NCBI GenBank assembly: GCA_964635905.1
Contig: CAZWPK010000002.1
Span: 77,621-141,620 of the forward strand
Direction: 5' to 3'
Source: an uncultured Pseudomonadales bacterium
Lineage (GTDB): Bacteria > Patescibacteriota > Microgenomatia > UBA1400 > UBA12028
Length of the DNA stretch: 64,000 nucleotides
In this document: positions 335 through 59,783 of the stretch, in pieces
Position numbering within the stretch: position 1 is the first letter of the stretch
Layout of the letters: every line of letters begins with the position of its first letter
Translations under genes and position numbers: made by a program
The notes under the pieces: generated by a model
What the model saw: only the letters and a program-made list of their open reading frames with translations
The model's database searches: none
What the model was told of the DNA's origin: nothing

Positions 335-1717
335 ATGAACAAACAGCTTATTGTGCGAAATGCAGGCGTCCAAACAGTCTATCAAATTGTCTCAAACATT
401 TTAGGGTTTGTCTTTACCGTTGTACTCATTAAGGCTACAAGTCAATTTGAGTTTGGTGTGTACAGCTATATTTTTTCCACCCTCGTGATTGTGAACCTGT
501 TTATTGAATTAGGAATCCCCACCTATTTCTTACGTCACTGGAGTACGCATCCGGAGGACTTTGAAAAAGAACGCCAACTGTTATTGGGTACTCGAATACT
601 GTTAACCATCCCTGTCAGTATCCTACTCTTTATTTATGTATTCTTTATTGATCGATTTGTCAGTTTAGAATTTTTACTAGCCTACGTTTACTTTCTCCTA
701 GATGGATACTTGCAACTCAATAAAATGTTCCTGTCTGCAAGAGACAAATTCCATCTAACTGCCGTAATTGATGGAAGTGAAAAAGCCATTGCCTATGGAG
801 GCGGAATCCTGATTCTATTACTTGGTGGGAAACTTTTGCAGGTCTTTGTCATCTATATCATCGGAAAACTGGTGGCAATCACCCTTTCCAATATCTGGAC
901 TGGCGGATTCAAACTTCCTCAATTTGACATTTCCAAATCCATTGAAGTTGTACGGAAATCATTGCCGTTGTTCATGTTAAGTGTGTTTGGGATTCTGTAT
1001 TTTCGTGTCGATATGTTGATTATTCGACATTTGTTGGGAGTCGCTGCAGTTGCGCCCTACAGCACGGCGTACCGATTAATGGATGCAGCAGTAATTCTGC
1101 CAGGTATTATTCTGGCTGTGTCCGTACCCACCTTAACGAAACTGTATGCGGACAAGGAAGAGGAAAAACTCACACGGTCACTGTTTTTGGCAACGCGTTA
1201 TCTTTCGGTCGTCGCTTTTTTTATCGCGGCTTGTTGTCTACTCTTTGCTAAAGAAGTCATGCTCACTGCTTTTGGATCGGAGTATGCCAGTGCGGCACCA
1301 GTGCTCCAGTTGTTCGGATTAACAATTATCGTCTTGTATTTAAATGCCCCACTCTCCTATTTCATGTACACCGGTCGAAAAGAAAAAACACACACCAAAG
1401 TCTTGGCACTACTCACAATTCTAAATGTCGTACTCAATGTTGTATTCATTCCTATCTTAGGAGTTGTTGGTGCCGCACTTGCAACACTTCTGTGTGAACT
1501 CATTGGATTCTTCTTTCTGCGCCATTTCGTCGGTCACGCTCTCCCACTGCATGCAATCGTTGCTCCTGCTCTCTGTATCACCGCTTCTGCTCTGGTAGCG
1601 ATGCTCATTAAACCCAATTGGATCATCGCAGTTTTCTTTATGGGACTAATTTACCTCTTGCTTTTATTCGTAACTCGGACTATTTCTTTTAAAGAGTTAT
1701 CTTTTCGAACAAAGTAA
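335..1717 (+). CDS. Wzx-like oligosaccharide flippase (MOP superfamily / polysaccharide biosynthesis protein)
   Basis: 460 aa with about 12 to 14 predicted TM helices and loops rich in R/K/Y. The hydropathy layout matches the polysaccharide-biosynthesis (Wzx/RfbX) family. It sits at the head of a glycosylation operon. Confidence 0.55.
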   Translation: MNKQLIVRNAGVQTVYQIVSNILGFVFTVVLIKATSQFEFGVYSYIFSTLVIVNLFIELGIPTYFLRHWSTHPEDFEKERQLLLGTRILLTIPVSILLFIYVFFIDRFVSLEFLLAYVYFLLDGYLQLNKMFLSARDKFHLTAVIDGSEKAIAYGGGILILLLGGKLLQVFVIYIIGKLVAITLSNIWTGGFKLPQFDISKSIEVVRKSLPLFMLSVFGILYFRVDMLIIRHLLGVAAVAPYSTAYRLMDAAVILPGIILAVSVPTLTKLYADKEEEKLTRSLFLATRYLSVVAFFIAACCLLFAKEVMLTAFGSEYASAAPVLQLFGLTIIVLYLNAPLSYFMYTGRKEKTHTKVLALLTILNVVLNVVFIPILGVVGAALATLLCELIGFFFLRHFVGHALPLHAIVAPALCITASALVAMLIKPNWIIAVFFMGLIYLLLLFVTRTISFKELSFRTK

Positions 1718-1725
1718 GGGATTTC

Positions 1726-2904
1726 ATGGATTACAAAATTAAATTGATTAAATCTTCTTTCTATAATGAAACGGAGACAAAAAATGCGTTGTGCGCATTC
1801 ATTCAAGATGCAAAACAGCTCTCCATTGGAACGGAATGTCTTGCGTTTGAAACTGAATTTTCCGCCTGGCAGGGTCGGAAGTACTCCGTCCTCTTTAACA
1901 GTGGTAGTTCTGCCAACTTAGCCTTAATTCAAGCCTTATTAAACATGGGGAAATTGCAACCAGGCATGAAGGTAGGCTTCTCCGGCATTACTTGGGCGAC
2001 CAATGTCATGCCGCTACTACAACTTGGTCTAATTCCCATCCCAGTAGATATTGAGCTCGATACACTCAATGTCTCCAGTCATACATTGGAACAAACACAT
2101 CAAGAACAGAAGCTTGACTGTTTATTTTTAACGAACTTACTGGGTTTTTCCGACGATATCAAAAAAATCAAGCAATTTTGTTTTAAAGAAAACATTTTAC
2201 TCTTAGAAGATAACTGTGAATCCATGGGGAGTAAGACTTCTGGGAAAATGCTTGGAAATTTCGGACTTGCTTCAACGTTCTCTTTCTTTGTAGGACATCA
2301 CATGTCTGCAATTGAGGGAGGAATGGTCTGTACGGATGATAAAGAACTGGATCGACATCTACGAATGGCACGATCGCACGGCTGGGATCGGCACCTCACA
2401 GAGAAGCAACAAAAATCACTTCGAACTGAACATGCCATTTCAGATTTTTTTGCGAAGTATACTTTTTATGATCTAGCCTACAACTTGCGACCCAATGAGA
2501 TCACAGGATTCCTTGGAAAATATCAACTCAAATTTATCGATGAAACAACGCACAAACGGGAACAAAATTTTAAAGCTCTATTGAAGATCTATGATGTCTG
2601 TGAGGATGTCTATCCTTTAGATATTCGAATGGACTTTGTTAGCAATTTTGCGATGCCACTAGTCTTTAAATCCGAACAACTCAAGGATTCCTATTGTTCT
2701 CGCTGTGAAAAACTTGGAATTGAGGTACGACCAATCGTGGGTGGGGTAATGGCAGACCAACCATTCTTTAAAAAATACATTTCTCAAACGTACAATATCC
2801 CTGTTTCCAGATTAGCTTTTAAACAAGGATTTTACTTTGCCAATAATCCTGAGCTCACCCAAGATGAGATTGAATACTTGATTGCTGCCTTTAAGAGTGA
2901 ATAA
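1726..2904 (+). CDS. DegT/DnrJ/EryC1/StrS-family PLP-dependent sugar-modifying enzyme; ColD/E1-like 3-dehydratase subtype (His-His in place of active-site Lys)
   Basis: 392 aa with a fold-type I aminotransferase signature (FNSGSSANLALIQALL ... LLEDNCESMGS). At the position where true aminotransferases carry SFHxxK, the protein reads SFFVGHHMSAIEGG. This resembles the His-for-Lys replacement of GDP-4-keto-6-deoxymannose 3-dehydratase ColD (about 388 aa) and CDP-hexulose 3-dehydrase E1. Confidence 0.6.
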   Translation: MDYKIKLIKSSFYNETETKNALCAFIQDAKQLSIGTECLAFETEFSAWQGRKYSVLFNSGSSANLALIQALLNMGKLQPGMKVGFSGITWATNVMPLLQLGLIPIPVDIELDTLNVSSHTLEQTHQEQKLDCLFLTNLLGFSDDIKKIKQFCFKENILLLEDNCESMGSKTSGKMLGNFGLASTFSFFVGHHMSAIEGGMVCTDDKELDRHLRMARSHGWDRHLTEKQQKSLRTEHAISDFFAKYTFYDLAYNLRPNEITGFLGKYQLKFIDETTHKREQNFKALLKIYDVCEDVYPLDIRMDFVSNFAMPLVFKSEQLKDSYCSRCEKLGIEVRPIVGGVMADQPFFKKYISQTYNIPVSRLAFKQGFYFANNPELTQDEIEYLIAAFKSE

Positions 2905-4130
2905 TGTCTATGCTAAATATTGCATTAGTTATCTGGCAACTTGATACCTACGGTGGCTCGATTCGTCAAATTTTAGAAGAAGCACGCTATCTGCAAAAAC
3001 AGGGACACCGCGTGGATGTTTTTGCCTATCGCGTTGATAAAGAAAAATGTTTTCCTGAATTTATCAATGAGATTAATGTTATTGCTGCCAAGCCAATTGC
3101 AATTTCCCAAGAATTTTATAATCAGTCCGATCCCATTTTGAAGCGAATAAGGGCATTCCTACGCAATGAGTGGGTACAACTTCAACAAGTACAAGCCATT
3201 GGAAATCAAATAGAAATTCAACACAAAAAGCGTGCCTATGATGTGATCAATTACCATGATCACGGAGTCTATCGATTATCAACGCGCTTCCCAACGGGAA
3301 AAAATGTGTGGATGATGAATGATCCACCCTCCTTTATTGATGCAAAAGAAAAAGGAGCATCCGAGTATGCTCAAACGACTCTCATGAAAGTGCTGGCATG
3401 GGTTGAGAAAATTCGGACAAACATCGCACTCAAAGAGATGGACACTATCGTGGTCTTGGATGAGCGAAATAAAGAAATCGTGCAGCGTCATTTTGGCAAA
3501 ACTGCTAAGGTTATTAAAAGTGGTCTGTCCATCCCTTCCGATTTAAAACAGATGCCAGTCAAAAAGAAGCGTAAGAGTATCCAGTTACTGACAACCAACA
3601 TCTTTTTTCGACATCGTCGCTATGAAGATCTTATTGAAGCTGCCCATATCCTGATCAACAAGCGAAAAGTTAAAAACGTCGCGTTTCATATCGTAGGTGA
3701 TCCTGCGCCTGACATGGGGTACTTTAAAATGATTCAAGGACTGGTACAACGCTATGGATTAACTTCCTACATTACATTCTTAGGAAAGGTAACCGAGGCA
3801 ATACTTGAACGAGAATATCGGGAAGCGGATGTCTTTGTGTTCCCAAACCATAATCAAACTTGGGGATTATCTGTCTTTGAAGCGAGTCTACGTGGGTGTG
3901 CGGTGCTCGTCAGCAAGACTGCCGGGGCACATGATGTGCTAAGCGATGGGAAAAATGCAATTTTCATCCAGCCAAAAAACCCCTCACATCTAGCAAAGCA
4001 GTTAGAACGCGTCATTACCGATGAGAAACTTCGAAACTCGATTGCCAAAGCTGGATACAATTTTGTTCGAAAAAACATATCCTGGACGCAGTATGCCAAG
4101 GATATGGAATCGATATTCAAGCATCCCTAA
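2904..4130 (+). CDS. Glycosyltransferase family 4 (group 1)
   Basis: 408 aa. The C-terminal GT-B region carries the E-x7-E-like motif (GLSVFEASLRGCAVLVSKTAGAHDVL). The ATGTCTATG start overlaps the upstream stop. Confidence 0.7.
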   Translation: MSMLNIALVIWQLDTYGGSIRQILEEARYLQKQGHRVDVFAYRVDKEKCFPEFINEINVIAAKPIAISQEFYNQSDPILKRIRAFLRNEWVQLQQVQAIGNQIEIQHKKRAYDVINYHDHGVYRLSTRFPTGKNVWMMNDPPSFIDAKEKGASEYAQTTLMKVLAWVEKIRTNIALKEMDTIVVLDERNKEIVQRHFGKTAKVIKSGLSIPSDLKQMPVKKKRKSIQLLTTNIFFRHRRYEDLIEAAHILINKRKVKNVAFHIVGDPAPDMGYFKMIQGLVQRYGLTSYITFLGKVTEAILEREYREADVFVFPNHNQTWGLSVFEASLRGCAVLVSKTAGAHDVLSDGKNAIFIQPKNPSHLAKQLERVITDEKLRNSIAKAGYNFVRKNISWTQYAKDMESIFKHP

Positions 4131-8061: not shown

Positions 8062-9933
8062 TTGAACATGTGTGGAATCGCCGGTAAGGTAACATTTGAG
8101 GGGTCAGTGAAGGCATCGGATATCAAGAAGATGACCGACAGTCTCTCCCATCGTGGTCCCGATGATGATGGGGTTGAAGCGTTGGAATCGTGTGGACTTG
8201 GCCAACGACGATTGGCTATTATTGATCTTTCTCCAAAAGGTCATCAACCAATGAGTTACGACTCAAAACGGTATTGGATTACCTTTAATGGTGAAATTTA
8301 CAATTATCTTGAACTTCGCAGTCTGCTGCTTAAAAAAGGCTATCCATTCACTTCCCAGTCTGATACAGAAGTCATCTTAGCAATGTACGCCCAGTATCAC
8401 GAGAAATGTGTTAAATACTTTAATGGCATGTTTGCCTTTGCCATCTACGATAAGAAAAAGAAAACGTTGTTCGCTGCGCGTGACAGAATGGGTAAGAAGC
8501 CCTTTAAATATTACTTCTCTTCCAACTCCTTTATTTTTGCCTCTGAGATCAAAGCACTCTTTACCCAACCAGAAGTTCCAAAGGAAGTCGATGAAGAAGC
8601 CATCTCTTCCTATATTTACTGGGGGTTTGTACCCTCTCCTCGGACTGGATTTAAAGCTATTTACAAATTGCCACCGGGTCACTACTTGATCCTTCAAAAC
8701 AAAAAACTAACGATTAAACCGTATTGGTCAGTAACCGTTGATCCCACTTCTTCTCTGTCAGTTGAAGAAGCGAAATCACAACTTCGGACTTTACTTGAAT
8801 CCTCCGTTTCACTTCGAATGATTGCTGATGTCCCGTTAGGCTCTTTCCTATCAGGAGGAATTGATTCCTGTGTCGTAACCGGTTTGATGAGCAAGCTTAG
8901 TGATCATCCAGTTCGTACATTCACGGTTGGAGCAAGTCAGTGGGGCATGGATGAACGAGCAGATGCAAGAATCTCAAGTCAGTTTCATGGGACACGTCAC
9001 CTAGAGCTGGAGATCAAACCAAACGTTAATGAGGCATTGATACACCGATTAGTGACAGCCTATGATGAGCCTTTTGGAGATTCATCCGCAATTCCTTCCT
9101 ATTTTGTCAGTCAACTTGCCCGAAAACATGTTACGGTAGCGTTAAATGGGGATGGTGGTGACGAAAGTTTTTTTGCGTACAGTAACCATACAACATTAGC
9201 GTTTATTAAGCGCATGCACGCCCTTTCGCTACCCGCTAACCTGGTCTATCGACTCCTTCGTCCCTTCACTTCACAAGCAGTGATGCATCCGCTGGTTCAG
9301 CGCGTACTCCGGGTATCGCATCTTCTGTCACAACAATCGCTGGATGGCTACAGTCTCTACGCACGTGGATATACCAACGGGATAGACATGAATGAACTCT
9401 GGAATGATGCCACCAATCAGTTAGAGAAAGAACTTGCCTCAAGGTTACCGCACACAGCAACCGATGATATCAGTAAGGTTCTGTCCCTCGATCTTTCAAC
9501 AATTCTTCCAGATGGGTTGATGACAAAAATGGATATTGCCAGTATGCAGTGGGCGTTGGAGGGCCGTTCACCGCTCCTAGATTACCGAATAGTCGAGTTT
9601 GCCGCATCACTGCCACTAGAGTATAAATATCACAATCACGAGACAAAATGGATCCTTAAGGAGGCCTGTAACGATCTAATTCCACCCTTGATCCGTTCGT
9701 TACCGAAACGAGGTTTTGTCCTTCCTGTAAATGAGTGGATGAAGACTACTCTTCGCAAACAGTTTGATCAGGCTTTTCTTTCTACGAACCATCCAATGTT
9801 TTCAATCCTAAACTTTGACACCACCAAAAAGATGTATGACTATCACCAGCGGGGTGTAGCGGATTATTCTGCGCAACTGTGGAAACTATTTATGCTGTCA
9901 AAATGGTATGACACTTTTTTTAAGTCTACGTAA
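8062..9933 (+). CDS. asnB: Asparagine synthase (glutamine-hydrolysing)-family amidotransferase (AsnB/WbpS-like)
   Basis: N-terminal MCGIAGK nucleophile Cys2 of an Ntn glutamine amidotransferase, then the PP-loop SGGIDSCVV of the synthetase domain. Length is 623 aa, as in the glycan-cluster AsnB paralogs. Confidence 0.85.
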   Translation: MNMCGIAGKVTFEGSVKASDIKKMTDSLSHRGPDDDGVEALESCGLGQRRLAIIDLSPKGHQPMSYDSKRYWITFNGEIYNYLELRSLLLKKGYPFTSQSDTEVILAMYAQYHEKCVKYFNGMFAFAIYDKKKKTLFAARDRMGKKPFKYYFSSNSFIFASEIKALFTQPEVPKEVDEEAISSYIYWGFVPSPRTGFKAIYKLPPGHYLILQNKKLTIKPYWSVTVDPTSSLSVEEAKSQLRTLLESSVSLRMIADVPLGSFLSGGIDSCVVTGLMSKLSDHPVRTFTVGASQWGMDERADARISSQFHGTRHLELEIKPNVNEALIHRLVTAYDEPFGDSSAIPSYFVSQLARKHVTVALNGDGGDESFFAYSNHTTLAFIKRMHALSLPANLVYRLLRPFTSQAVMHPLVQRVLRVSHLLSQQSLDGYSLYARGYTNGIDMNELWNDATNQLEKELASRLPHTATDDISKVLSLDLSTILPDGLMTKMDIASMQWALEGRSPLLDYRIVEFAASLPLEYKYHNHETKWILKEACNDLIPPLIRSLPKRGFVLPVNEWMKTTLRKQFDQAFLSTNHPMFSILNFDTTKKMYDYHQRGVADYSAQLWKLFMLSKWYDTFFKST

Positions 9934-12570: not shown

Positions 12571-14373
12571 CTAGGGATTAAAATACACGCAAATCACTTT
12601 ATTTGCATCGGCAGTTTGAATACAGTGCAATGCTTTATCCACTTGTTGATCCTCTACTATACCGGCTATGACTTTAACAGGGGTACTACGATCATTTCCA
12701 GGCACGACCTTGATAGCATAGCGCTGTGCGGTATAAATGAAGGGATACACATACCCTTCTCTTCCTGTAAAGGCAACTTTTTTAACCCCGTTATCATGGA
12801 GGTAGATGATCATTTCTAGATAGGCAGATCTCCAATATGGTCGTGACAGAAAGTAATTTGCCTCATTTCTTCCAAAAAGCACTGACTGCGGAGGCGTATA
12901 TCCAGAAGGTATTGCGGACTTAATGGTGGAAAGAATGGGTTGATACGAAATCAGTGGCCGAGAAACGTTAGAAATAAGTACGATAAAGCCTACACCAACA
13001 GTTATGACGGCAATTATTATTGATGTTTTCTTTGAAGGTTTGAGTACACCGATACCCGCTGTGAGAAGAACAAATAGAATGCTTAAGTGTTGGCGAATGT
13101 GATATGGCTGCCAACGTAGCAGGATACAAAAAAGGAAAAAAGAGCAGATGCCAAGGAAAAAAAGAACAAACGTCATCCCTGTCCTCTTCGCTTTATTTCT
13201 ACCGACGAGGGCAAGGATCATTGCGATCAACGCCAGATGTAATGGCGCTGGCGCTATATCTTCCTGAGGTATTGGGATACTTAGATGAGAGAATGTTGAA
13301 TGAAACCACGAAGATTCTGACAAACGTACTGATACTCCAAGGGGTTCAACGATTGTTACCCACAAATCCAGTGACTTTGAGAAACTAAAAAATGGAACGT
13401 GCATCAAAAGATTTCGATAAATGTTTTCCACAGCTCCAGCGACGCTGAGGGTGTCCACCATAAAGGGAATGCTTTCACCATCAATGGTGTAACTTGTCCC
13501 TAAGTATGAATTGAACAGTCGCTTATTTTGACTTAAAAGAGGAAGACAAAGTAGGAGCCCAAAGAGGCCCCCGATGGCAGCTGCCTTCAGCATTTTGAGC
13601 CTGTCGGAAGAATAAACAAAAAAATGCGAACCTACAATGCCTATGGGCATTACGGCATAGATGACCATCGTCGCTTTAGTAAGGTAACCAAGTACTACGG
13701 AAACTGTGCACAAGAACAGCAGCACTGGGTTTCTATCAATTACATATCGAAGTGCAAAAATGATCGACACCAAAACCCAAATGGCAACCAACAAATCACT
13801 TTGGACGCTGCTCGCTTGCAGCGTTGCAATCGGTATACTCAGACTTAGAATCTGGGCTAATTGCGTTTGTCTTGAGGTGTATGCAAGGAGCTTGGCAATC
13901 CGTCCAATGAAAAAGAATATGAGCACATACGAAATCCACTGCGGAAGAAATAGCAACAAATCAGAATTCGTTAGACTATAAAAAAATGCAAGGAGGATAC
14001 TCGGCATCGGCCCCATAAAGTCGTGTGACGTGTGAATGTCGGTTTGAAAGAGGGTGTGGTTTTGCAGCCAGTACAGCGCGCGCGGAATATGATAATTATG
14101 AGCATCTGTCGTGGTAGGAACAGAAATAAACCCTTGAATAAAAGCCAATGTAGAAAAAATGACCAGCACACCCACAGTTCGCGATACTGTTACCGTATGT
14201 CTATTCAAAAACAGCAATGACAAAAGGACAGCGACGATTGCTAATCCAACCATGCGCACTATATCCGGCGTAAACATGGAGAATGCCGATAGTACATATG
14301 ATAGACTTAACAACAGAATTCCGGCTAAAGCTACTACTGTCTCTAGTGGAATAGCGCGAAATCTAGATTGCAT
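12571..14373 (-). CDS. Large polytopic membrane protein, putative GT-C-like glycosyltransferase
   Basis: About 600 aa with many TM helices. I chose the start at the internal Met (MQSRFRAI...) to limit overlap with the upstream gene. There is no specific motif beyond the architecture. Confidence 0.4.
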   Translation of the reverse strand: MQSRFRAIPLETVVALAGILLLSLSYVLSAFSMFTPDIVRMVGLAIVAVLLSLLFLNRHTVTVSRTVGVLVIFSTLAFIQGFISVPTTTDAHNYHIPRALYWLQNHTLFQTDIHTSHDFMGPMPSILLAFFYSLTNSDLLLFLPQWISYVLIFFFIGRIAKLLAYTSRQTQLAQILSLSIPIATLQASSVQSDLLVAIWVLVSIIFALRYVIDRNPVLLFLCTVSVVLGYLTKATMVIYAVMPIGIVGSHFFVYSSDRLKMLKAAAIGGLFGLLLCLPLLSQNKRLFNSYLGTSYTIDGESIPFMVDTLSVAGAVENIYRNLLMHVPFFSFSKSLDLWVTIVEPLGVSVRLSESSWFHSTFSHLSIPIPQEDIAPAPLHLALIAMILALVGRNKAKRTGMTFVLFFLGICSFFLFCILLRWQPYHIRQHLSILFVLLTAGIGVLKPSKKTSIIIAVITVGVGFIVLISNVSRPLISYQPILSTIKSAIPSGYTPPQSVLFGRNEANYFLSRPYWRSAYLEMIIYLHDNGVKKVAFTGREGYVYPFIYTAQRYAIKVVPGNDRSTPVKVIAGIVEDQQVDKALHCIQTADANKVICVYFNP

Positions 14374-15556
14374 AAAGTGAAAGGAGTTTTTCAAGAGACT
14401 CCTGACCGGTCCATAACTTCGGTTGTTCGGCTTTTTGTGAACGGTGAAAGTATTCAACGATCATTTCGGAGTCTTTTTGTTTGTCAAAGCTTAACTGTTC
14501 TACGATGTCAGCAATTGCCTTGGGGTATAAAGCTTTATTACCGACTACCGTAGGACATCGATTTAAACTTGCTTCATAAACAGGATAACCAAATCCTTCA
14601 TAAATGCTTGGGTGAACAAAAACCTTCGCTGTATGATACAAAGCCTTGAGCATTAAAAAACGTACCTTTGGAAAATATAGTACAGAGCGTTGGTCTCGTA
14701 GCATTTCTTTGACTTTAAAATGATCGTTACCATGTTGCCCTACGAGTACTAAGTATGCCGACGGTTCCAATTGATGGATTTTATTCCAGATTTCCAGCAG
14801 ATATGGTATTCGTTTGTGCGGATAGTGTGCGCTTACACATAAGGCAAACCTCTTGCCTTTTAACGCTGAAGGTAACGATTCAAATGGCCCGTTATACACG
14901 TCCGGTGCAATTATTGGGGGCACCACCACTATTTTGGCTTTCGCCCATGGCAGATGTTCGCTTAATCGTTTTTTTGAAAACTCGCTATCGGTGACGATTG
15001 TTTTACTCTTGAGACAAGCCAGTGTGACCAATACATGGGTGATGATCCCAGAAAGAAATGAAAAATCTTCAGGATGATCCAGCCAATTCGCGTCATGAAC
15101 AGTCACGATTGATTCGGCTTTCAGAAAAATTGGAGCAGTATAGCCAAATGAATGGAGCAGAATGCAGTTTTCCGTTGCAACCTGAAACGGCAGAATGCAC
15201 TGCTCATAGAGTAGGCGTAGAATTCGGTTGCTCGCTCTCACTTTACACACAACTTTGGTTACCGATGATTGTGAGAATTCAAATGTCGAAGCATTTTCTT
15301 CGTTACAAAAAAGAACATACGTATTGGTCGAATCTCTACTCAATTGATTAATGAAGTTACGGGTGAGGTATTCTGTACCACCAACCTGGTTTGGAACTAA
15401 AAATAAAAGGTTTATACCAATTCTTGCCATATGCGCAAATACTAGATCATTGACAGTGTACCTTGAGCAAAGGAAACTCACAATACTTCTGGTTAGCATG
15501 ATATATTCTAAAGATTCAGCTATGCTTACCTCAAAAATAACGGCATGTTTAGTCAT
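14363..15556 (-). CDS. Glycosyltransferase family 4
   Basis: VHPSIYEGFGYPVYEASLNRCPTVV is a classic GT4 E-x7-E motif. Confidence 0.7.
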   Translation of the reverse strand: MTKHAVIFEVSIAESLEYIMLTRSIVSFLCSRYTVNDLVFAHMARIGINLLFLVPNQVGGTEYLTRNFINQLSRDSTNTYVLFCNEENASTFEFSQSSVTKVVCKVRASNRILRLLYEQCILPFQVATENCILLHSFGYTAPIFLKAESIVTVHDANWLDHPEDFSFLSGIITHVLVTLACLKSKTIVTDSEFSKKRLSEHLPWAKAKIVVVPPIIAPDVYNGPFESLPSALKGKRFALCVSAHYPHKRIPYLLEIWNKIHQLEPSAYLVLVGQHGNDHFKVKEMLRDQRSVLYFPKVRFLMLKALYHTAKVFVHPSIYEGFGYPVYEASLNRCPTVVGNKALYPKAIADIVEQLSFDKQKDSEMIVEYFHRSQKAEQPKLWTGQESLEKLLSLYAI

Positions 15557-21648: not shown

Positions 21649-23828
<2,180 letters not shown>

Positions 23829-24605
23829 TTATTTGAGGATAGAGTACGCAGCAAGAATACAACGGTTATGAAGGGCATGCAAGCGAAGCAACACACCGGA
23901 AGAGGTGAATCTAGACGCAACTATCTGTTCCTCTTTGAATTGCTTTGCGTAGCTGCTTCCCCCTTTTGAATTTTGATGAATTCTAAATGCAGATAAGGCT
24001 TGATTAAGAAAGAAGGGTGATCCAAATTTATTTTGCAGTCTCCACCAGTATTCATAGTCCATTGTATAGGACAGTGCTTCATTAAATTCCCCGATTTCTT
24101 CATAGGCACTAGCTCTAAAAAAGACCGAGGGCTGTGGAATCGGATTGAGGATGCTCAGGAGGCTTTTAGAATAGATCCGCCGCAACAATGATTTATACAG
24201 CCGGACGTATGACTGGATTTGAGTTCCATTGGCATCAACGATTAGAGCATCACCTACTACCCACTGAACGGTGGGGTTTTCATCAAATACTTTTGCTACC
24301 GCAGAAAATGCACCTGGCAAATAATAGTCATCGGAATTCAGATAGGCCAGAATCTCTCCGCTGGCACGTTGTAGACCTTTATTAATGGCGTGGGCTTGAC
24401 CGTTGTCGGGTTTGCTTTCAACAACAATTCTCTTCCCGAACTTTTTTAACGCAGTAAGTGTGTTGTCTGTCGATCCACCATCCATGACAATGTGTTCGAC
24501 ATCTAATATATCTTGATTTTGGACACTCTCAATAGTTTTGGAAATGAAAATGCCTTGATTGTAGCTTGGAGTAATAATGCTAAAGTGCGGCTTTTTTGGT
24601 GTCAT
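23829..24605 (-). CDS. Glycosyltransferase family 2 (paralog of 9926..10738)
   Basis: FSIITPSYNQGIFISKTIESVQNQ and LNSDDYY motifs. It shows about 40 to 50% identity by eye to the GT2 at 9926..10738, including a homologous shadow ORF. Confidence 0.75.
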   Translation of the reverse strand: MTPKKPHFSIITPSYNQGIFISKTIESVQNQDILDVEHIVMDGGSTDNTLTALKKFGKRIVVESKPDNGQAHAINKGLQRASGEILAYLNSDDYYLPGAFSAVAKVFDENPTVQWVVGDALIVDANGTQIQSYVRLYKSLLRRIYSKSLLSILNPIPQPSVFFRASAYEEIGEFNEALSYTMDYEYWWRLQNKFGSPFFLNQALSAFRIHQNSKGGSSYAKQFKEEQIVASRFTSSGVLLRLHALHNRCILAAYSILK

Positions 24606-24933
24606 CGATAGCTTTCTTTCGAACCAGCTGCTCTAGCTTCTTATCCATTCGCTTTTGCTCAATTCGATTTAGAAAAGTGAGAAATACTACGATCATTAAG
24701 GCAATAATCACAAGTAAATCAAAAACTCTGGCAATATTTAATGTTTGGACCACTCCATTAACAGTTTGAGGAAAAATCGCCAAGAAAATAAAGACTCCCC
24801 ACAAACCCATCCAGATTCCGTATTCCATGCTATCGATATGTTGTTTTCGATGATGGATACGAACCGTATACATCATGAAGAGTCCAAACAGTACGGAAAT
24901 AATCTGTAGTAATCTCATAAACCTACTTTCCAT
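24580..24933 (-). CDS. Small membrane protein, DUF2304-like (GT2-associated)
   Basis: About 117 aa with two TM helices and a charged C-terminal tail (EQKRMDKKLEQLVRKK). This layout and the position next to a Dpm1-like GT2 are typical of DUF2304. The start could be 24951, 24933 or 24918. Confidence 0.4.
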   Translation of the reverse strand: MESRFMRLLQIISVLFGLFMMYTVRIHHRKQHIDSMEYGIWMGLWGVFIFLAIFPQTVNGVVQTLNIARVFDLLVIIALMIVVFLTFLNRIEQKRMDKKLEQLVRKKAIDDTKKAAL

Positions 24934-25571
24934 TCTAGCAAACACCGGCAAATATGTATTCCGTCGATGAGCGTCATTCCTTTATCGGTATCATGATAAA
25001 TAGCTTCAATTTCAATAACTGCATACTGAACGTGCTCTTTGGTTACTCGCATTGCTATCTCAGTCTCCACTTCATATCCCGACGATTTCCATTTCACTTT
25101 ACCATAACCTTTACGAGTAAGAGCTTTGTACCCGGAGGGAATATCAGGAATATAACCGCCGTAGAGCATGTTGAGCAAAACAGATGCGAATTTGTTACCT
25201 AAGAATCGCGATAATGGCATATTAGCGCCCATTTTGCGCACGCCAAATACAACATCAAACTCTCGTAGTGTAGCGATGAATTTAGGAATTTCTTTGGGAT
25301 CATGTTGATCATCAGCATCCATAAAGATGACTGCATCTGCATTGAGAGTCGAGAATGCATATTCGCATCCAGTTTTTAATGCTGCCCCTTTACCTAGATT
25401 TGTCTCATGAACCAGCACGTGTTTTGTATGATTGCCTGCCAAAGAGGCAGTATTATCAGTCGAGCCATCGTCGACAAAGATTACCTGAGGATGAATTGCT
25501 TTCACCTTTGAGAGTACGGTGGAGACATACTGTTGTTCATTATGGCCGGGGATGATGATAAAGACATTCAT
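24915..25571 (-). CDS. Polyprenyl-phosphate sugar synthase-like GT2 (Dpm1/GtrB family)
   Basis: Start at MNVFIIIPGHNEQQYVSTVLSKV; DxD region FVDDGSTDNT ... FMDADDQHDP. It is short and soluble, as in GtrB/Dpm1-like enzymes. Confidence 0.65.
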   Translation of the reverse strand: MNVFIIIPGHNEQQYVSTVLSKVKAIHPQVIFVDDGSTDNTASLAGNHTKHVLVHETNLGKGAALKTGCEYAFSTLNADAVIFMDADDQHDPKEIPKFIATLREFDVVFGVRKMGANMPLSRFLGNKFASVLLNMLYGGYIPDIPSGYKALTRKGYGKVKWKSSGYEVETEIAMRVTKEHVQYAVIEIEAIYHDTDKGMTLIDGIHICRCLLEWKVGL

Positions 25572-29346: not shown

Positions 29347-30246
29347 CTACTCTTGTTTCAAAAACCACTCCACCGTGGTTTTAATACCCTCTTCCAGTGA
29401 AACATGAGATTCCCAGTGCAGAATCTCTTTAGCTTTAGAACTGTCGGCAAATAGGAGTAAGGGATCACCAGGTCGAGGTGGGAAATTTTTAATGTTAGCC
29501 TCAATTCCTAGGTTCTTCTCAAGCAATTTAATGACATCGCTGACTTTGGTAGCATTCTTACCTGATAAGTTAAAGTAATGATATTTACCTGGCTCCAGCG
29601 TCAACGCTTGTAGATGTGCCGCAACGATATCACTAATGTAGACAAAATCGCGTTGATGTTCTCCAGTTCCCCAAACAGTGACTTCTTCCCCTTTTCGTAT
29701 CTGAGAGATAAATCTTGGGATCGCATGCGTTTCCGGATCGTGGTTTTCTCCAGGTCCATAGAGATTAAAGTATCGTAACGCTACACAAGTAAAGCCATGG
29801 GTATACGAATACGAGGATGCTAGAGCTTCCATCGCAAGTTTAGTCATTCCATAAGGATTGATAGGCATCGTTCGATCGTCTTCCAAAATTGGAACACGAA
29901 TCGGTTCTCCATACACAGCCGCGCTTGAGGAAAAGATAAATTGCTTGATACCAAGCTTTCGCATCTCTTCTAACAAAACAACCGTTCCAAGTACATTATT
30001 TTGCGTGTATTCATAGGGTTTTAAAACTGACTCCCCTGCTTCAATAGAGGATGCTAAGTGAAATACTGCTTCGATTCTGTCCAACGCCTGTACAACTGTT
30101 TTTTGATCACCGACATCCCCCTGAATAGTTTCAAATTCAGGATTAAAATGACGATCTAAAACTCTGACTTCATGACCTTGTTCCTGAAGAGAGCGACACA
30201 AATGAGAGCCTAAAAAGCCACTACCTCCAGTGACAAGTACGCGCAT
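29347..30246 (-). CDS. NAD-dependent nucleotide-sugar epimerase (UDP-glucose 4-epimerase GalE-like)
   Basis: Rossmann motif VLVTGGSGFLGSHL and the catalytic YxxxK (YGMTKLAMEALASSY) of SDR epimerases. 299 aa. Confidence 0.75.
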   Translation of the reverse strand: MRVLVTGGSGFLGSHLCRSLQEQGHEVRVLDRHFNPEFETIQGDVGDQKTVVQALDRIEAVFHLASSIEAGESVLKPYEYTQNNVLGTVVLLEEMRKLGIKQFIFSSSAAVYGEPIRVPILEDDRTMPINPYGMTKLAMEALASSYSYTHGFTCVALRYFNLYGPGENHDPETHAIPRFISQIRKGEEVTVWGTGEHQRDFVYISDIVAAHLQALTLEPGKYHYFNLSGKNATKVSDVIKLLEKNLGIEANIKNFPPRPGDPLLLFADSSKAKEILHWESHVSLEEGIKTTVEWFLKQE

Positions 30247-46638: not shown

Positions 46639-48141
46639 CTATCTTCGTACTAATGAAAGTAACTCTTTTTGTATCTTCTCAAATCCAAGTAACCCGAGCA
46701 AGCCAACGAAAATACAACCACCGGTAACCACACCTGCCACAAACAGGGGTACAGACTGACTCCACAAGGGGATAAAGCGATACAAAATCACTGCCATACA
46801 CACGGAAGCAACCAGTTGTCTCCAAATTTGTTCAAAAAATTCAAATGGTACTTCCTTCTGTAACGCTTTGACCACAAAAATAACGGTCAATGATATTGCC
46901 ACACTAGCCAAAGCTACTCCATTAAAACCGAAGCGCCAGATAGCAAGTGGGGTGAGCGTCCACTGTAATAGCGTCCAAATCAACATAAACCGTAATGACG
47001 TGTTTATTTTCCCTATCGCATTGAGCGTATTGATCAATGGAGTAGAGATCGACGAAAAAGCGATACTGATACACATTAAACCTAATGTTAATAAGGCTGG
47101 TTGCCATTGCGCATATTTTGGAACTAACGCGGTTAAGGGGATAAACATCACTGAAAACCCTGCTAAAAGTGGGAAAACGGCTAAACTGACAAAAAAGAGT
47201 GTCTTCTCAATCGCACGCTTGAGCAGATGTGAATCGTGCTGCAATCGCGCAAAGGTAGGAAAGGTGATTGCCATAATGCTGTCTACTCCGAAACGATACG
47301 GAAGCCTGGACGCCTGATTTGCCCAGGTAATGTAGCCCAATTCCGGTTTAGAAAGTAAAAAGACGGTGATAACCGAAAATAATTCGTCCTTGATCTTCGC
47401 AATCACGTCATTGGCTTGGAATTTAATTCCGACTTTCATTAAGTCTGAAAACGCAGATTTTGAGAAGGCGAACCCTACCGGCCAGCGTTTAATGGAAAGC
47501 ATGATGACCACACCAATGATGGCTCTAGCCAACACCGCAATCGAGTAACTGGTAATGCCCATTCCTCTCCAAGCGAAAAATAAGACAATTCCATTAAAGA
47601 CCATGGCTTCAACCACAGCTGGCATGGCCAGTTTTCCAAATTCCAATTGTCGTTCTAGTAAGATCGATGAATTCGTTTTCAGGGAAACAATGGGAAACGA
47701 CAGTGCAAACGCCGCGGCAAGAAAGACTGCTGGCATCTCTAGCTTTCCATTGAGATGTAATGTCCATGCAGTTGTAATGATCAGGACACAGACAATCCAG
47801 GCAAGAATTTGCTGAACGGTAAAGACTGTGCGTAAATCGCGAACTGTTGGGGCTTCTTTTTTTTGAATCAGTGAGGCTGCTAAGCCAATGTCCGAAATAA
47901 TGGTAAAGAAGCTACTGATGGAAACGACAATTCCATAGATTCCAAAATCAGTAGTAGATAATAATGCGGACAATAAAAAATAGGAAAGTACCCCTATTCC
48001 TTGGAGAAAGAGTGAGCGAATCACATAGGAAATCGCCCCACGCATGGACCTCTTTTTAATATCTTCAACTTGTAGAACATCTTCTGCAATGGACAATGCG
48101 GGATTTAAATCTTCTGATGGCTGATCTTTCGCTAATACCAT
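46639..48141 (-). CDS. Wzx-like oligosaccharide flippase (MOP superfamily)
   Basis: About 500 aa with 12 to 14 TM helices in the polysaccharide-biosynthesis-protein layout. The track ORF starts at 48180, but I use the internal Met. Confidence 0.55.
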   Translation of the reverse strand: MVLAKDQPSEDLNPALSIAEDVLQVEDIKKRSMRGAISYVIRSLFLQGIGVLSYFLLSALLSTTDFGIYGIVVSISSFFTIISDIGLAASLIQKKEAPTVRDLRTVFTVQQILAWIVCVLIITTAWTLHLNGKLEMPAVFLAAAFALSFPIVSLKTNSSILLERQLEFGKLAMPAVVEAMVFNGIVLFFAWRGMGITSYSIAVLARAIIGVVIMLSIKRWPVGFAFSKSAFSDLMKVGIKFQANDVIAKIKDELFSVITVFLLSKPELGYITWANQASRLPYRFGVDSIMAITFPTFARLQHDSHLLKRAIEKTLFFVSLAVFPLLAGFSVMFIPLTALVPKYAQWQPALLTLGLMCISIAFSSISTPLINTLNAIGKINTSLRFMLIWTLLQWTLTPLAIWRFGFNGVALASVAISLTVIFVVKALQKEVPFEFFEQIWRQLVASVCMAVILYRFIPLWSQSVPLFVAGVVTGGCIFVGLLGLLGFEKIQKELLSLVRR

Positions 48142-48145
48142 AGGT

Positions 48146-49834
48146 CTATTTTTTATGTCGTCGTAGTTGTAACAGCGCAATCAAGAAAGCAGTCGAGGAA
48201 ACTAGAGAAATAAGTTCCGACAGCCCTCGAAGTGATGTCCGTTCCAGTCGAATTAAGAGCTCATGCTCCCCTTTTGGAATCTCTAACTGGTAGGTACCCG
48301 TTGTCGCATGGCTTCGTAACGGTAATGATACTCCATTTAGATACGCTCTCCATCCAGGAAAAGTAAAAATCTTTACATCCAGACCACATGGAGTACTACA
48401 GTGTACCTGTGTAAGTATGGATGAGGGTTTTTCTTGAATTACATTCAAACTTCCCTCGCCGGTTACGATCGCTAGACGATCCTCTGATGGAGGTGGATAG
48501 TTTGTCCCCACAACTTCTGGGGGAAGATAGTCATTGAGCGTACCGCTTAATGCACTACGAATGAATTCCGAGTCCGTTCGATAGTACGAAGACAGATCAT
48601 CCAGATAACGCTCGGGAACAAACAGTTTCGCCTGAAACAGGGCGCACAGAATCAGCACACTTACCAGTAGGAAACGTGCCGATTTCTCGCGAAAAAGAAA
48701 AATCGCCCCACCAGCCAGTAACGCCAGGAAAACATGCGAAAATGCTAACAATCTCCAGGGAAACTGGAGAAAACGCAGCGTCGGCACGTGTTCCCATACC
48801 CAAACACTCTTTGAGGTGGTTAACCAAGTAAACGCAGCAAAGAAAAGTACGATTACGACTACGAACAGTTTTGAATACTTGTTTCCTTTACGTGCGATAA
48901 CCATCACCGACAAGGCAGCAATACCCAAGGCTAACATCCCAAGTGAGAAACTAATCCCGTCCTCGATGCCTGGTATCGATCCACCATATCCCCACGTACC
49001 AGTAAAGAGCTGACGAATAGCCACGAAGTGATTGTGAAAATCGAAATCACCCGTCGTGATTGTTTGTTCGACACGGGTGTACCCTTTTTCAAAATAGGCA
49101 GGGATCACATAAAAGGCACAGAGTCCGATTCCCAGCAACACGGAGACGGCTACCCGTTGAAAAAAGATTCTCTTTTCTTGGATCGTTTTTTGAGAAATAA
49201 CTACAAGTGCCGCAGCAAAAAGAACAAGCAATGGTAGCAGGATCATTCCAAGCAAATTATGTGAAGTTAGGGTGATGGCAATGCAAAAAGCCAACCATAT
49301 AATCCCACCTTTTTTTTGCTTTTCAAGATAGACAACTCCAGCCAGAGCAAATGGTATTGTAACCATCGCAAACACTTCTCCAATGGCACCGCGGACATAG
49401 AGGTCAACCGCTCGATAGGTTGCAAAAGAGAAAAGAATGGCACTAAGAATTCCGCCCTGTTTTCCCCAAAATTCTTTGGATAAAAGATACATTCCGACAA
49501 AAGCGAGGATGGCATTGATGATATACAAAAGTTTAATCGAAATAATCGCTCCAAATAACCAGTTTGGAAGTTGCGCAAGATAGTATGGAAATGGCGCATA
49601 GAAATTGAACAACGGCATTCCGTATCCAAATCCAAAGTTTTCTGACCATCGAACGGGTATCTCTCCAGAGGCAAGACTCCGTTGCATCTCCACAATTCGC
49701 GCAGCATGGGTATAGTCGTGTGGTCGAAAGAAATCTGTACGAAGAACCGCAAAACTTGTCAGCACGACACAAAGAATTCCGATTCCAACGACGAACCACT
49801 TATCGAGCCACTGCGGTAATGTTGTCTTATGCAT
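48146..49834 (-). CDS. Polytopic membrane protein, unknown (possible polymerase/GT-C-like)
   Basis: About 560 aa with many TM helices and a C-terminal soluble domain. Start at MHKTTLPQWL, 4 nt after the upstream stop. Confidence 0.4.
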   Translation of the reverse strand: MHKTTLPQWLDKWFVVGIGILCVVLTSFAVLRTDFFRPHDYTHAARIVEMQRSLASGEIPVRWSENFGFGYGMPLFNFYAPFPYYLAQLPNWLFGAIISIKLLYIINAILAFVGMYLLSKEFWGKQGGILSAILFSFATYRAVDLYVRGAIGEVFAMVTIPFALAGVVYLEKQKKGGIIWLAFCIAITLTSHNLLGMILLPLLVLFAAALVVISQKTIQEKRIFFQRVAVSVLLGIGLCAFYVIPAYFEKGYTRVEQTITTGDFDFHNHFVAIRQLFTGTWGYGGSIPGIEDGISFSLGMLALGIAALSVMVIARKGNKYSKLFVVVIVLFFAAFTWLTTSKSVWVWEHVPTLRFLQFPWRLLAFSHVFLALLAGGAIFLFREKSARFLLVSVLILCALFQAKLFVPERYLDDLSSYYRTDSEFIRSALSGTLNDYLPPEVVGTNYPPPSEDRLAIVTGEGSLNVIQEKPSSILTQVHCSTPCGLDVKIFTFPGWRAYLNGVSLPLRSHATTGTYQLEIPKGEHELLIRLERTSLRGLSELISLVSSTAFLIALLQLRRHKK

Positions 49835-49838
49835 ACAA

Positions 49839-52660: not shown

Positions 52661-52661
52661 G

Positions 52662-53408: not shown

Positions 53409-53455
53409 ATTGTCCTATTGTACACAAAAGATTCTATTTATGGCTCTACAAACCG

Positions 53456-54991: not shown

Positions 54992-55015
54992 AGACCTTCA
55001 CAGTTTAGTTGTCCT

Positions 55016-56542: not shown

Positions 56543-56565
56543 AGGAATACAGAAAATAACTTTTC

Positions 56566-57841: not shown

Positions 57842-58810
57842 TTATAGCATTTCTGCTTGTAATTCTGCCTCCACCATAATCTTCACGAGTTCCTTAAAGG
57901 AAGTTTTTGGAACCCATCCGAGCTTTTCTTTAGCTTTCGTACTGTCCCCAATAAGTAGTTCCACTTCGGCTGGACGATCATAACGACCATCGTGTTCAAT
58001 GACGGCTTCCCAATTATCAACACCAGCGACGGCACAAGCTTCCTGCACAAATTCTCGTACAGAATGCGTTTCACCCGTTGAAATGACGTAGTCATCTGGT
58101 TGATCTTGTTGCAGCATCAGCCACATTGCTTCTACGTAGTCTTTGGCATATCCCCAGTCACGCTTAGCGTCCAGATTGCCCAGTTTCACTGTTTTCTGTT
58201 TTCCATATTTCACTCTGGCAACTCCATTTGCAATTTTTCGGGTGACAAATTCTAATCCTCTTCGGGGTGATTCGTGATTAAACAAAATTCCAGAGACAGC
58301 ATACAGATTGTAGGATTCGCGATAATTGACCGTGATCCAGTGACCATAGACCTTTGCCACACCATAGGGAGAACGTGGATAGAATGGAGTACTTTCCTTT
58401 TGTGGAACAGCTTGCACTTTACCAAACATTTCCGACGATGATGCTTGATAGAATCGAGCTTGTGGACACGACACATGCAAAGCTTCCAACATCCGTGTCA
58501 CGCCAATTCCAGTAAATTCGCCTGTTAGGACTGGCTGCTCCCAAGATGCATGCACAAAGGATTGGGCGGCAAGGTTGTAAACTTCATCCGGCTGAATTCG
58601 ATCGAGGGCACGAGTCATGGAATGCTGATCCAATAAGTCTCCAGAAATGAGTTCAAAGTTTTCGTTATGGATTGTTTCACCCAATCGAGAGTAATTGAGC
58701 GTACTCGTCCGACGCGTCATTCCATACACTTTATATCCCTTTTCCAATAACAGCTCTGCCAAGTAGGACCCGTCCTGTCCGGTTACCCCGGTAATAAATG
58801 CTTTTTTCAT
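57842..58810 (-). CDS. gmd: GDP-mannose 4,6-dehydratase
   Basis: KKAFITGVTGQDGSYLAELLLEKGYKVYGMTRRTS ... YNLAAQSFV aligns residue-by-residue with Gmd. I start at MKKAFITG, because the track start at 58852 overlaps the upstream gene. Confidence 0.9.
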   Translation of the reverse strand: MKKAFITGVTGQDGSYLAELLLEKGYKVYGMTRRTSTLNYSRLGETIHNENFELISGDLLDQHSMTRALDRIQPDEVYNLAAQSFVHASWEQPVLTGEFTGIGVTRMLEALHVSCPQARFYQASSSEMFGKVQAVPQKESTPFYPRSPYGVAKVYGHWITVNYRESYNLYAVSGILFNHESPRRGLEFVTRKIANGVARVKYGKQKTVKLGNLDAKRDWGYAKDYVEAMWLMLQQDQPDDYVISTGETHSVREFVQEACAVAGVDNWEAVIEHDGRYDRPAEVELLIGDSTKAKEKLGWVPKTSFKELVKIMVEAELQAEML

Positions 58811-58826
58811 AACAAAGAAATCCTTT

Positions 58827-59783
58827 CTACGTACGCGCTCTCCACTCCTCAATGATTTTTTCTAGTTCCTCATTGATGGAAATCTGTAGCTCCCAACCTA
58901 ATGATTGTATCTTTCTATTGTCGGCAATGAGTTTAGGCACGTCAAGGGGACGTAAGCGAGCTTCATCTTGTTCAACAGTAATAGGTACAGTGGACAATCC
59001 GACAAGTTGGTTCACAATCTCCTGCATTTGGATGCCAGTTCCAGACCCGATGTTGTAGACGTCACCCACTGCTCCCTTCTCAAGAAGTACGATATACGCT
59101 CGGACCATATCTTTAACACTCGTAAAATCTCGAATTCCTTGTAGGTTCCCTACTTCCAATGTTTGCTTTTTTCCCTGTTCAATTTCTACAATTTGCTTGA
59201 CAAATGATGGCACTGCAAAATCACCGGTCTGCCGAGTACCGATATGATTGAATGGTCGCGCTCGTACAATATTTAGCTTGTAACTTAAGTAATAGCTATT
59301 GGAGAGTAAGTCTTGGGTCGTCTTGGAAACGGCATAGGGGTTAACCGGATTGAGACTGACGTGTTCGTCAATATAATCCAAATCCAAGTCAACAACACCA
59401 TACTCTTCGGCGGATCCGATGCTTAAAACTCGCGCTTGCGGACAAATTGCCTTCACTCCATCCAAAAGATTTAGTTGTAAGTTAATGTTATTGGTAAATA
59501 ACTCTCGAGCTTTTTCAAAGCTTTTGCCGACATACGCAAACGAGGCTAAATGGAAGATCCAGTCAGGTTTAACGGTCTTAAGCAAAGCTTGCGTTGCTTC
59601 GCCATTGGAAAGATCAACTTGAATATAGTGATCGTCGGCAAGAAATTTGACGTTCTCCGGAGGGGGAGAAAAGGTTGTAGAGTAAATGTTGGTATATCCC
59701 GAAGCAAGTAGTTCTTCAATTAAATGAGATCCAGCAAAGCCAGTTCCCCCGGTAACTAAAATGCGTGGTTGATCACTTGGCAT
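58827..59783 (-). CDS. NAD(P)-dependent nucleotide-sugar epimerase/reductase; possibly GDP-6-deoxy-D-mannose reductase (Rmd-like)
   Basis: Rossmann motif ILVTGGTGFAGSHL, catalytic YAVSK, and an RPFNHIG motif shared with Rmd-type GDP-4-keto-6-deoxymannose reductases. It lies directly upstream of gmd in the same operon. Confidence 0.55.
   Translation of the reverse strand: MPSDQPRILVTGGTGFAGSHLIEELLASGYTNIYSTTFSPPPENVKFLADDHYIQVDLSNGEATQALLKTVKPDWIFHLASFAYVGKSFEKARELFTNNINLQLNLLDGVKAICPQARVLSIGSAEEYGVVDLDLDYIDEHVSLNPVNPYAVSKTTQDLLSNSYYLSYKLNIVRARPFNHIGTRQTGDFAVPSFVKQIVEIEQGKKQTLEVGNLQGIRDFTSVKDMVRAYIVLLEKGAVGDVYNIGSGTGIQMQEIVNQLVGLSTVPITVEQDEARLRPLDVPKLIADNRKIQSLGWELQISINEELEKIIEEWRART

Follow-up and report, generated by a model that had tools for sequence, protein, structure and literature searches.

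3,6-Dideoxyhexoses are known mainly from Gram-negative pathogens, in which they are immunodominant O-antigen determinants, and Patescibacteria are not known to have lipopolysaccharide (LPS). Could a member of this group make such a sugar? The question is raised by a gene at positions 1726..2904 of a 64,000-nucleotide stretch of contig CAZWPK010000002.1 (the window) from a patescibacterial genome, whose product carries two neighbouring histidines at the site of a catalytic lysine. We put a probability of about 0.72 on the following reading, which draws on sequence comparisons, a structure model and analogy with characterised enzymes. The gene would encode a ColD-type 3-dehydratase, dependent on pyridoxamine or pyridoxal 5'-phosphate (PMP, PLP) and independent of an iron-sulphur (Fe-S) cluster, that acts on the product of the guanosine diphosphate (GDP)-mannose 4,6-dehydratase Gmd. 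A short-chain dehydrogenase/reductase (SDR) of the Fcl family would then make a GDP-3,6-dideoxyhexose, GDP-L-colitose being the simplest case. Such a sugar, with colitose the likeliest, is a plausible product. Two features lie at the centre of the argument:

1726..2904, + strand: predicted ColD-type PLP/PMP-dependent nucleotide-sugar 3-dehydratase of a Patescibacteria subfamily, 392 amino acids (Pfam, PDB, profile, AlphaFold2/Foldseek, neighbour-joining tree)
2281..2307, + strand: active-site motif S186-FFVGHHMS-194 (alignments to ColD, E1 and a true aminotransferase)

The open reading frame is complete, and the Pfam domain DegT_DnrJ_EryC1 (PF01041) covers residues 17-389 of its product (E = 3e-52). 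In pairwise and profile alignments, H191 (codon CAT, 2296-2298) and H192 (CAC, 2299-2301) fall on H188 and H189 of ColD, a column that is fixed by the mutant entries 3b8x and 2r0t (H188N, H188K), which differ from the wild type at this position only. The same two residues also fall on H220 and H221 of E1. As a lysine control we used a normal DegT aminotransferase (WbpE-like, L001:4441-5565) from the same metagenomic contig, whose gene lies 5 kb upstream: its PLP lysine (FSFYPGKNLGA) pairs with H191 (FSFFVGHHMSA). No Schiff-base lysine was found near H191; the closest lysines, K174 and K206, are 15-17 residues off, which argues against a misaligned catalytic lysine. H191 and H192 were unchanged in 61 of 61 database homologs and in 80 of 80 homologs derived from reference genomes, so that the pair is a family trait and neither a sequencing error nor chance. 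An earlier note on this DNA had read the motif as His-His in place of the catalytic lysine, had proposed the alignment with ColD H188 and had named a misaligned lysine as a possible objection; H191 matches H188 in that alignment as well as the lysine of the true aminotransferase, and the objection fell away.

Three His-type nucleotide-sugar 3-dehydratases have been characterised, namely ColD, E1 and SpnQ (PMC8987622). ColD uses a GDP-sugar without an Fe-S cluster, hydrolysis resolves its intermediate and glutamate regenerates PMP; E1 uses a cytidine diphosphate (CDP)-sugar, binds [2Fe-2S] and requires the reductase E3; SpnQ uses a deoxythymidine diphosphate (dTDP)-sugar and binds [2Fe-2S] (PMC8987622). 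Among PDB entries, the best match of the window dehydratase was ColD (2gms, 5e-53, colinear over residues 11-387), with E1 at 5e-39. A profile of the window dehydratase family scored ColD with 277 bits versus 201 bits for E1. The AlphaFold2 model (predicted local distance difference test score 94) retrieved ColD in all of the top 12 Foldseek matches (template modelling (TM) scores 0.88-0.90), and E1 came next.

Alignment with E1 placed R222, L224 and L232 of the window dehydratase at the cluster ligands C251, C253 and C261. The fourth, C193, corresponds to C164, the sole cysteine kept of the four, and ColD has a cysteine there too. The Cys-rich insert of E1 was absent. At eight positions (W90, N163, E165, W220, R222, R255, E333 and P336) the residue is ColD-like and E1-unlike, mostly in 80 of 80 homologs and in 76-79 of 80 for the rest; R335 and N253 are invariant as well, and E1 has identical residues at both. 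Conservation likewise extends to the equivalents of ColD W88, D159, N160, E162, S183, W217, R219, N248, R250, E329 and R331, nearly every one of them in 80 of 80. We take these ColD positions to be cofactor or ligand contacts, as in the Holden-lab structures.

In a neighbour-joining bootstrap tree (200 replicates) of three aminotransferase outgroups, two ColD proteins, two E1-type proteins and 20 family members, the dehydratases split from the aminotransferases in 200 of 200 replicates. The family, here called the candidate phyla radiation (CPR) type, joined ColD in 199 replicates and E1 in one. Identity to sugar aminotransferases was about 22-26%. On the strength of sequence and model, we regard the assignment of the window protein as a ColD-type rather than an E1-type 3-dehydratase as supported. 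The earlier note had left it at a ColD/E1-type 3-dehydratase; that reading holds, and sequence, profile and predicted fold all favour ColD. Of the E1 [2Fe-2S] motif, the absence of which the note had expected, three of the four cysteines are missing; the ColD-like PLP-contact residues are retained, nearly all in 80 of 80; and the protein falls with the dehydratases and not, as the note had considered, among aminotransferases.

How widespread is this type? The nearest homologs (55-88% identity) come from metagenome-assembled genomes of Patescibacteria/CPR (Woesebacteria, Pacebacteria, CPR3, Zambryskibacteria, Parcubacteria, Adlerbacteria and Gottesmanbacteria), the 88%-identical relative being labelled Candidatus Woesebacteria. 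In a scan with one genome per species, at least 538 species genomes encoded a relative. Several loci carry the label Saccharibacteria. Besides H191 and H192, about 65 further positions are invariant at an average column identity of 66%, which points to purifying selection on the family. A canonical ColD from a metagenomic locus (L167) is 60% identical to E. coli ColD versus 35% to the window dehydratase; canonical ColD is therefore a lineage apart from the window family.

Public databases label the family 'DegT/DnrJ/EryC1/StrS family aminotransferase', and some homologs are called CDP-6-deoxy-D-xylo-4-hexulose-3-dehydrase or E1 by JGI. RefSeq/PGAP, however, gives the same aminotransferase label, and nothing more specific, to authentic ColD (L089 8974-10140, E. 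coli O55:H7 CB9615), so that the generic name carries no weight. ColC of E. coli O55 is treated similarly, as a 'GDP-L-fucose synthase family protein', and no ColC-specific model was among the NCBIfam matches. Since even authentic ColD is named generically, the window family is a divergent subfamily that is under-annotated rather than new in kind, and its chemistry itself is not new. Among the papers searched, none ties colitose or dideoxyhexoses to Patescibacteria/CPR.

For the substrate we turned to the gene neighbourhoods of relatives. The best 80 reference-genome loci were searched within ±10 kb of the colD-like gene using the window's own proteins, and matches of at least 300 bits were counted as true Gmd. 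Gmd was present in 25 of the 80 loci and an Fcl-family SDR in 41; 52 loci had one or the other and 14 had both. For comparison, Ugd was near the colD-like gene in seven of 80 loci and a homolog of the window's flippase in one. The SDR gene followed immediately 3' of the colD-like gene, on the same strand and within less than 200 bp, in 22 of the 80 loci, and gmd was located less than 60 bp directly 5' of it in L013, L017, L035, L046, L049, L078 and L085. Nine of the 14 loci holding both partners were organised as compact gmd–colD-like–fcl-like operons. The row in L008 runs colD-like, SDR, glycosyltransferase family 2 (GT2), Gmd, the latter with 496 bits on TIGR01472. In the E. coli O55 cluster, colC overlaps colD. 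Operons of this composition are expected for a dehydratase acting on GDP-4-keto-6-deoxymannose, and they indicate this substrate. The window dehydratase itself clusters with those of L009 and L011, which have the same downstream glycosyltransferase gene of family 4 (GT4), and is nested in a clade with Gmd/Fcl contexts; it thus gives no sign of a functionally separate sub-lineage. The data are consistent with a fucose pathway of gmd and fcl that has been extended by a colD-like gene.

Candidates for the partner enzymes are also encoded in the window:

57842..58810, − strand: GDP-mannose 4,6-dehydratase (Gmd), source of the presumed substrate GDP-4-keto-6-deoxy-D-mannose (TIGR01472, PDB 2z1m)
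58827..59783, − strand: Rmd-type GDP-6-deoxy-D-lyxo-4-hexulose reductase-like SDR (PDB 2pk3, 2.5e-60; 6x3b, 4.5e-39)
22878..23825, − strand: Fcl/ColC-family GDP-4-keto-sugar epimerase/reductase, 315 amino acids, candidate last enzyme (GDP-L-fucose synthase model, PDB Fcl)
23829..25571, − strand: GT2 – DUF2304 – GT2 block, co-oriented with the Fcl-like gene (Pfam families in L002)

Gmd, which the earlier note had placed at 57842..58810, is there: it reaches 449 bits on TIGR01472, over the 415-bit cutoff, and matches PDB 2z1m with 7.5e-128. The Rmd-like SDR gene lies directly upstream of gmd and is followed by Ugd at 59790-61109. A trio of Ugd and two SDRs in L006 at first resembled a copy of the Ugd–Rmd-like–Gmd trio of the window and was discarded, as NCBIfam showed that the L006 SDRs are not Gmd.

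The SDR at 22878..23825 has the GDP-L-fucose synthase model as its best match (280 bits, under the 500-bit cutoff) and hits Fcl in the PDB with 1e-62. Its identity is 36% to E. coli Fcl and 33% to ColC of E. coli O55; the latter two share 39%. All five catalytic positions are kept (T/C/Y/K/H at Fcl S107/C109/Y136/K140/H179), the SDR triad plus the Cys/His acid-base pair of epimerisation in E. coli Fcl. Sequence comparison does not assign this SDR to either Fcl or ColC function. A second, weak Fcl hit in the window (29347-30246, − strand) was rejected as the reductase; it is a GalE-like UDP-glucose 4-epimerase homolog (PDB 4zrm, 6e-58) with no part in the GDP-sugar route. The four genes GT2–DUF2304–GT2–Fcl-like SDR (22878-25571) recur as a block in a Paceibacterota relative (L005, 14029-16763) and may serve to load the GDP-sugar product onto a lipid carrier.

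In a reciprocal test we chose 80 metagenome loci by the window SDR type (59-70% identity). In forty of these Gmd was encoded, in most cases immediately upstream at 80-100 bp and on the same strand, and none of the 80 carried a CPR-type colD-like gene. One locus, L167 (186-1352), has canonical ColD directly upstream of the SDR; another, L113 (7611-8966), has, about 1 kb upstream of it, an RfbH-type E1 that scores 547 bits and contains the Cys-rich insert; RfbF, RfbG and E3, sought beside the latter as a control for the CDP pathway, were not there. In the set of colD-like loci, orthologs of the window SDR adjoin colD-like genes in L013, L017, L022, L044 and L084. All three of these 3-dehydratase lineages can therefore adjoin the window SDR type, which is normally the Fcl partner of Gmd and is occasionally recruited beside a 3-dehydratase. 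We favour naming the window SDR an Fcl-type epimerase/reductase, with a possible further role as ColC, over naming it a dedicated ColC. The earlier note had counted Gmd and this SDR as the other two enzymes of the GDP-colitose route. Both genes are real, and the family membership of the SDR is borne out; its dedication to the ColC step is not, given the empty result of the reciprocal test, and Gmd is paired with an Rmd-type reductase.

The dehydratase gene forms a local unit with its two neighbours:

335..1717, + strand: Wzx/MurJ-type polysaccharide flippase, 460 amino acids (Pfam Polysacc_synt / Polysacc_synt_3 / MurJ)
2904..4130, + strand: GT4 (Glycos_transf_1) glycosyltransferase, 408 amino acids (Pfam)

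The flippase gene ends 8 bp before the dehydratase gene on the same strand, and the GT4 start overlaps the dehydratase stop by one nucleotide (TAATG), which makes co-translation of these two genes likely. The flippase–dehydratase arrangement recurs in the closest long-contig relative (L005/L009), and a homologous GT4 gene stands directly 3' of the dehydratase gene in L005/L009, L011 and L006/L007. The GT4 matched no glycosyltransferase of the E. coli O55 colitose cluster, and a homolog of the GT11 protein, annotated in that cluster as alpha-1,2-fucosyltransferase, was found nowhere in the window; the glycosyltransferases of the cluster gave weak GT2-family matches only, at genes other than GT4.

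Further sugar-related genes surround this unit. Just upstream of the window start (L001 4441-7213) lies a WbpB/WbpD/WbpE-like trio of a GFO_IDH_MocA oxidoreductase, a hexapeptide acetyltransferase and the DegT aminotransferase with a normal lysine; the glycan island may thus also hold a pathway to an acetamido sugar. An asparagine-synthase-family amidotransferase (GATase_7 + Asn_synthase; 8062-9933, + strand) is encoded among glycosyltransferases, with a homolog similarly placed in L005, and may amidate a sugar acid. Membrane glycosyltransferases of the GT-C / PMT_2 (ArnT-like) kind are unusually dense (12571-14457, 21649-22899 and several genes within 46639-57783) and are accompanied by a GT2-GtrA fusion, an MptA_B-family gene (51407-52660) and a YfhO-like gene. 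The set suggests extensive extracytoplasmic glycosylation from polyprenyl-phosphate sugars.

How would such enzymes work together? By analogy with ColD (PMC8987622), glutamate would convert the non-covalently bound PLP of the window dehydratase to PMP. At the C4 keto group of the Gmd product, GDP-4-keto-6-deoxy-D-mannose, PMP would form a Schiff base, whereupon H191 would take the C4' proton and the C3 hydroxyl would be expelled. Hydrolysis of the resulting ene-amine would yield ammonia and GDP-4-keto-3,6-dideoxy-D-mannose. An Fcl-family SDR, with 22878-23825 as the candidate, would then epimerise C5 and reduce C4 to give the GDP-3,6-dideoxyhexose. Colitose is 3-deoxy-L-fucose, and GDP-L-colitose would therefore most simply result if an Fcl-type enzyme epimerised C5 and reduced C4 of the 3-deoxy intermediate. 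Finally, the GT4 enzyme (2904-4130) and the Wzx-like flippase would incorporate and export the glycan. In this scheme we infer which substrate the organism uses, that glutamate is needed, which reductase takes part, how the final sugar is configured and what GT4 and flippase do.

Several observations weigh against this scheme. Raw identity does not discriminate between the dehydratase types: the window dehydratase is 32% identical to E. coli ColD, barely above its 30% to E1, and ColD and E1 share 31%. The NCBIfam matches included no ColD-specific model to pass or fail. The tree is a neighbour-joining tree only, in which long-branch attraction between the CPR type and ColD is possible. As to context, neither Gmd nor an Fcl-family SDR lay within 10 kb of the colD-like gene in 28 of the 80 loci, and the reciprocal test did not lead back from the window SDR type to a CPR-type colD-like gene. 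In the window, the dehydratase gene is 55 kb away from gmd and 20 kb away from the Fcl-like gene, the association being a loose one within a common 64-kb glycan island. The Rmd-like SDR implies a putative GDP-D-rhamnose branch that competes for the Gmd product or uses it instead, and as this SDR is encoded directly beside gmd, Gmd is not evidence specific to colitose. Lastly, a search of the window turned up neither ManB nor ManC.

The alternative that survives best keeps the ColD mechanism and changes the sugar, a possibility we consider unlikely though not negligible. In that case a plain 4-reductase, such as the Rmd-like SDR beside gmd, would yield a D-series GDP-3,6-dideoxyhexose, or the enzyme would act on a related GDP-4-keto sugar, for instance a GDP-heptose derivative. 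In the relatives, at least four types of SDR partner follow colD-like genes: Fcl proper (50-58% identical to E. coli Fcl), the window type, a type of 324-335 amino acids and a type of 287 amino acids, so that the final sugar may differ between lineages. The last type (287-293 amino acids), directly 3' of the colD-like gene in L014, L015 and L008, has asparagine at both the Cys109 and the His179 position. It has probably lost epimerase activity and become a simple reductase, and we accordingly predict a D-series GDP-3,6-dideoxyhexose in these Parcubacteria. The Rmd-type reductase beside the window's Gmd, and the uncoupling of the window dehydratase gene from both gmd and fcl, point in the same direction. 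However, the commonest compact operon combines gmd and the colD-like gene with an Fcl-type SDR that has the full S/C/Y/K/H set, from which C5 epimerisation and hence an L-xylo product, colitose, would be predicted, and GDP-heptose pathway genes were not seen in the Pfam listings of the window.

Much less probable is the view that the protein either works as a sugar aminotransferase or has become a catalytically dead relic, His-His then having no meaning for dehydration. The public family label and the ability of SpnQ to transaminate under some conditions (PMC8987622) speak for it. On the other side stand the identical PGAP label of authentic E. coli O55 ColD, the lack of a Schiff-base lysine in the window dehydratase, the purifying selection indicated by H191, H192 and the other invariant positions, and the clustering with dehydratases in every bootstrap replicate. 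The weakest alternative, an E1/RfbH- or SpnQ-type dehydratase acting on CDP- or dTDP-4-keto-6-deoxyglucose with an external reductase, strikes us as hardly credible: although RfbH is the best NCBIfam model, several homologs bear the JGI labels given above and raw identity to E1 is near that to ColD, the 186 bits on this equivalog model stay below its 423-bit cutoff, whereas the real E1-type protein of L113 served as a positive control with its 547 bits, the Cys-rich insert and three of four Fe-S cysteines are absent, the dehydratases neighbouring the relatives' genes are Gmd and not CDP- or dTDP-glucose dehydratases, the Pfam and NCBIfam results of the window contain no nucleotidyltransferase, CDP-glucose dehydratase or E3-like/ferredoxin-reductase-type gene, and a grouping of CPR type and E1 appeared in a single one of the 200 replicates.

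If a ColD-type 3-dehydratase feeding an Fcl-family SDR is the right reading, it would correct a systematic under-annotation, given that the whole family, even E. coli ColD, is labelled as a generic aminotransferase or mislabelled as the CDP-sugar enzyme E1. It would also predict that many ultra-small uncultured Patescibacteria make 3,6-dideoxyhexoses and place them on an envelope without LPS, and would offer a testable handle on the surface glycans of episymbionts, of which little is known. Going further, and tentatively, with low confidence, the lineage that branches deeply beside ColD might, through its at least four types of SDR partner, give Patescibacteria more than one GDP-linked 3,6-dideoxyhexose for use in envelope or S-layer glycans. 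Stereoisomers that are not known as GDP-sugars might be among them (for example a D-series formed with reductase-only partners), and such rare sugars could act as surface identity determinants in the recognition between episymbiont and host.

How does the proposed system compare with known ones? With the DegT/DnrJ/EryC1/StrS aminotransferases (PseC, 2FN6; GDP-perosamine synthase, 3BN1; the WbpE-like protein L001:4441-5565) the window dehydratase shares the fold (TM about 0.82-0.85), the PLP-phosphate segments and the dimer-type architecture, but they have the Schiff-base lysine where it has H191. E1 of Yersinia pseudotuberculosis (RfbH/DdhC/AscC, PDB 3BCX, CDP-6-deoxy-L-threo-D-glycero-4-hexulose 3-dehydrase) has the DegT fold and His-His in place of lysine, and by analogy the C3 deoxygenation chemistry would be common to both up to the hexoseen intermediate; E1, however, is 437 amino acids long with the Cys-rich [2Fe-2S] insert and needs E3, whereas the window dehydratase is without the insert. 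The window SDR resembles E. coli Fcl and ColC in its SDR fold and complete catalytic set, and its type is typically encoded directly 3' of gmd; it differs in its 36% and 33% identity, respectively, and in its score under the Fcl equivalog cutoff.

The closest counterpart of the window dehydratase is ColD/WbdK of E. coli O55 (PDB 2GMS, 3B8X, 2R0T, 3GR9). Differences from it are the G190 of the window dehydratase where ColD has S187; the position of the window family as a separate, deep sister lineage (32% identity, versus about 60% of canonical ColD orthologs to each other); the location of the window gene inside a flippase–dehydratase–GT4 unit and not adjoining colC; and the hosts, which are Patescibacteria and not LPS-bearing Proteobacteria. 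In contrast, the two proteins agree in fold, in length (392 versus 388 amino acids, colinear), in His-His at the PLP-lysine site and in having no Fe-S motif. The segment LLEDNCESMG is identical in both, and the equivalents of ColD W88, N160, E162, W217, R219, N248, R250, E329, R331 and P332 are kept. In many relatives, moreover, the gene has gmd and an Fcl-family SDR gene as genomic partners, just as colD has in the E. coli O55 cluster.

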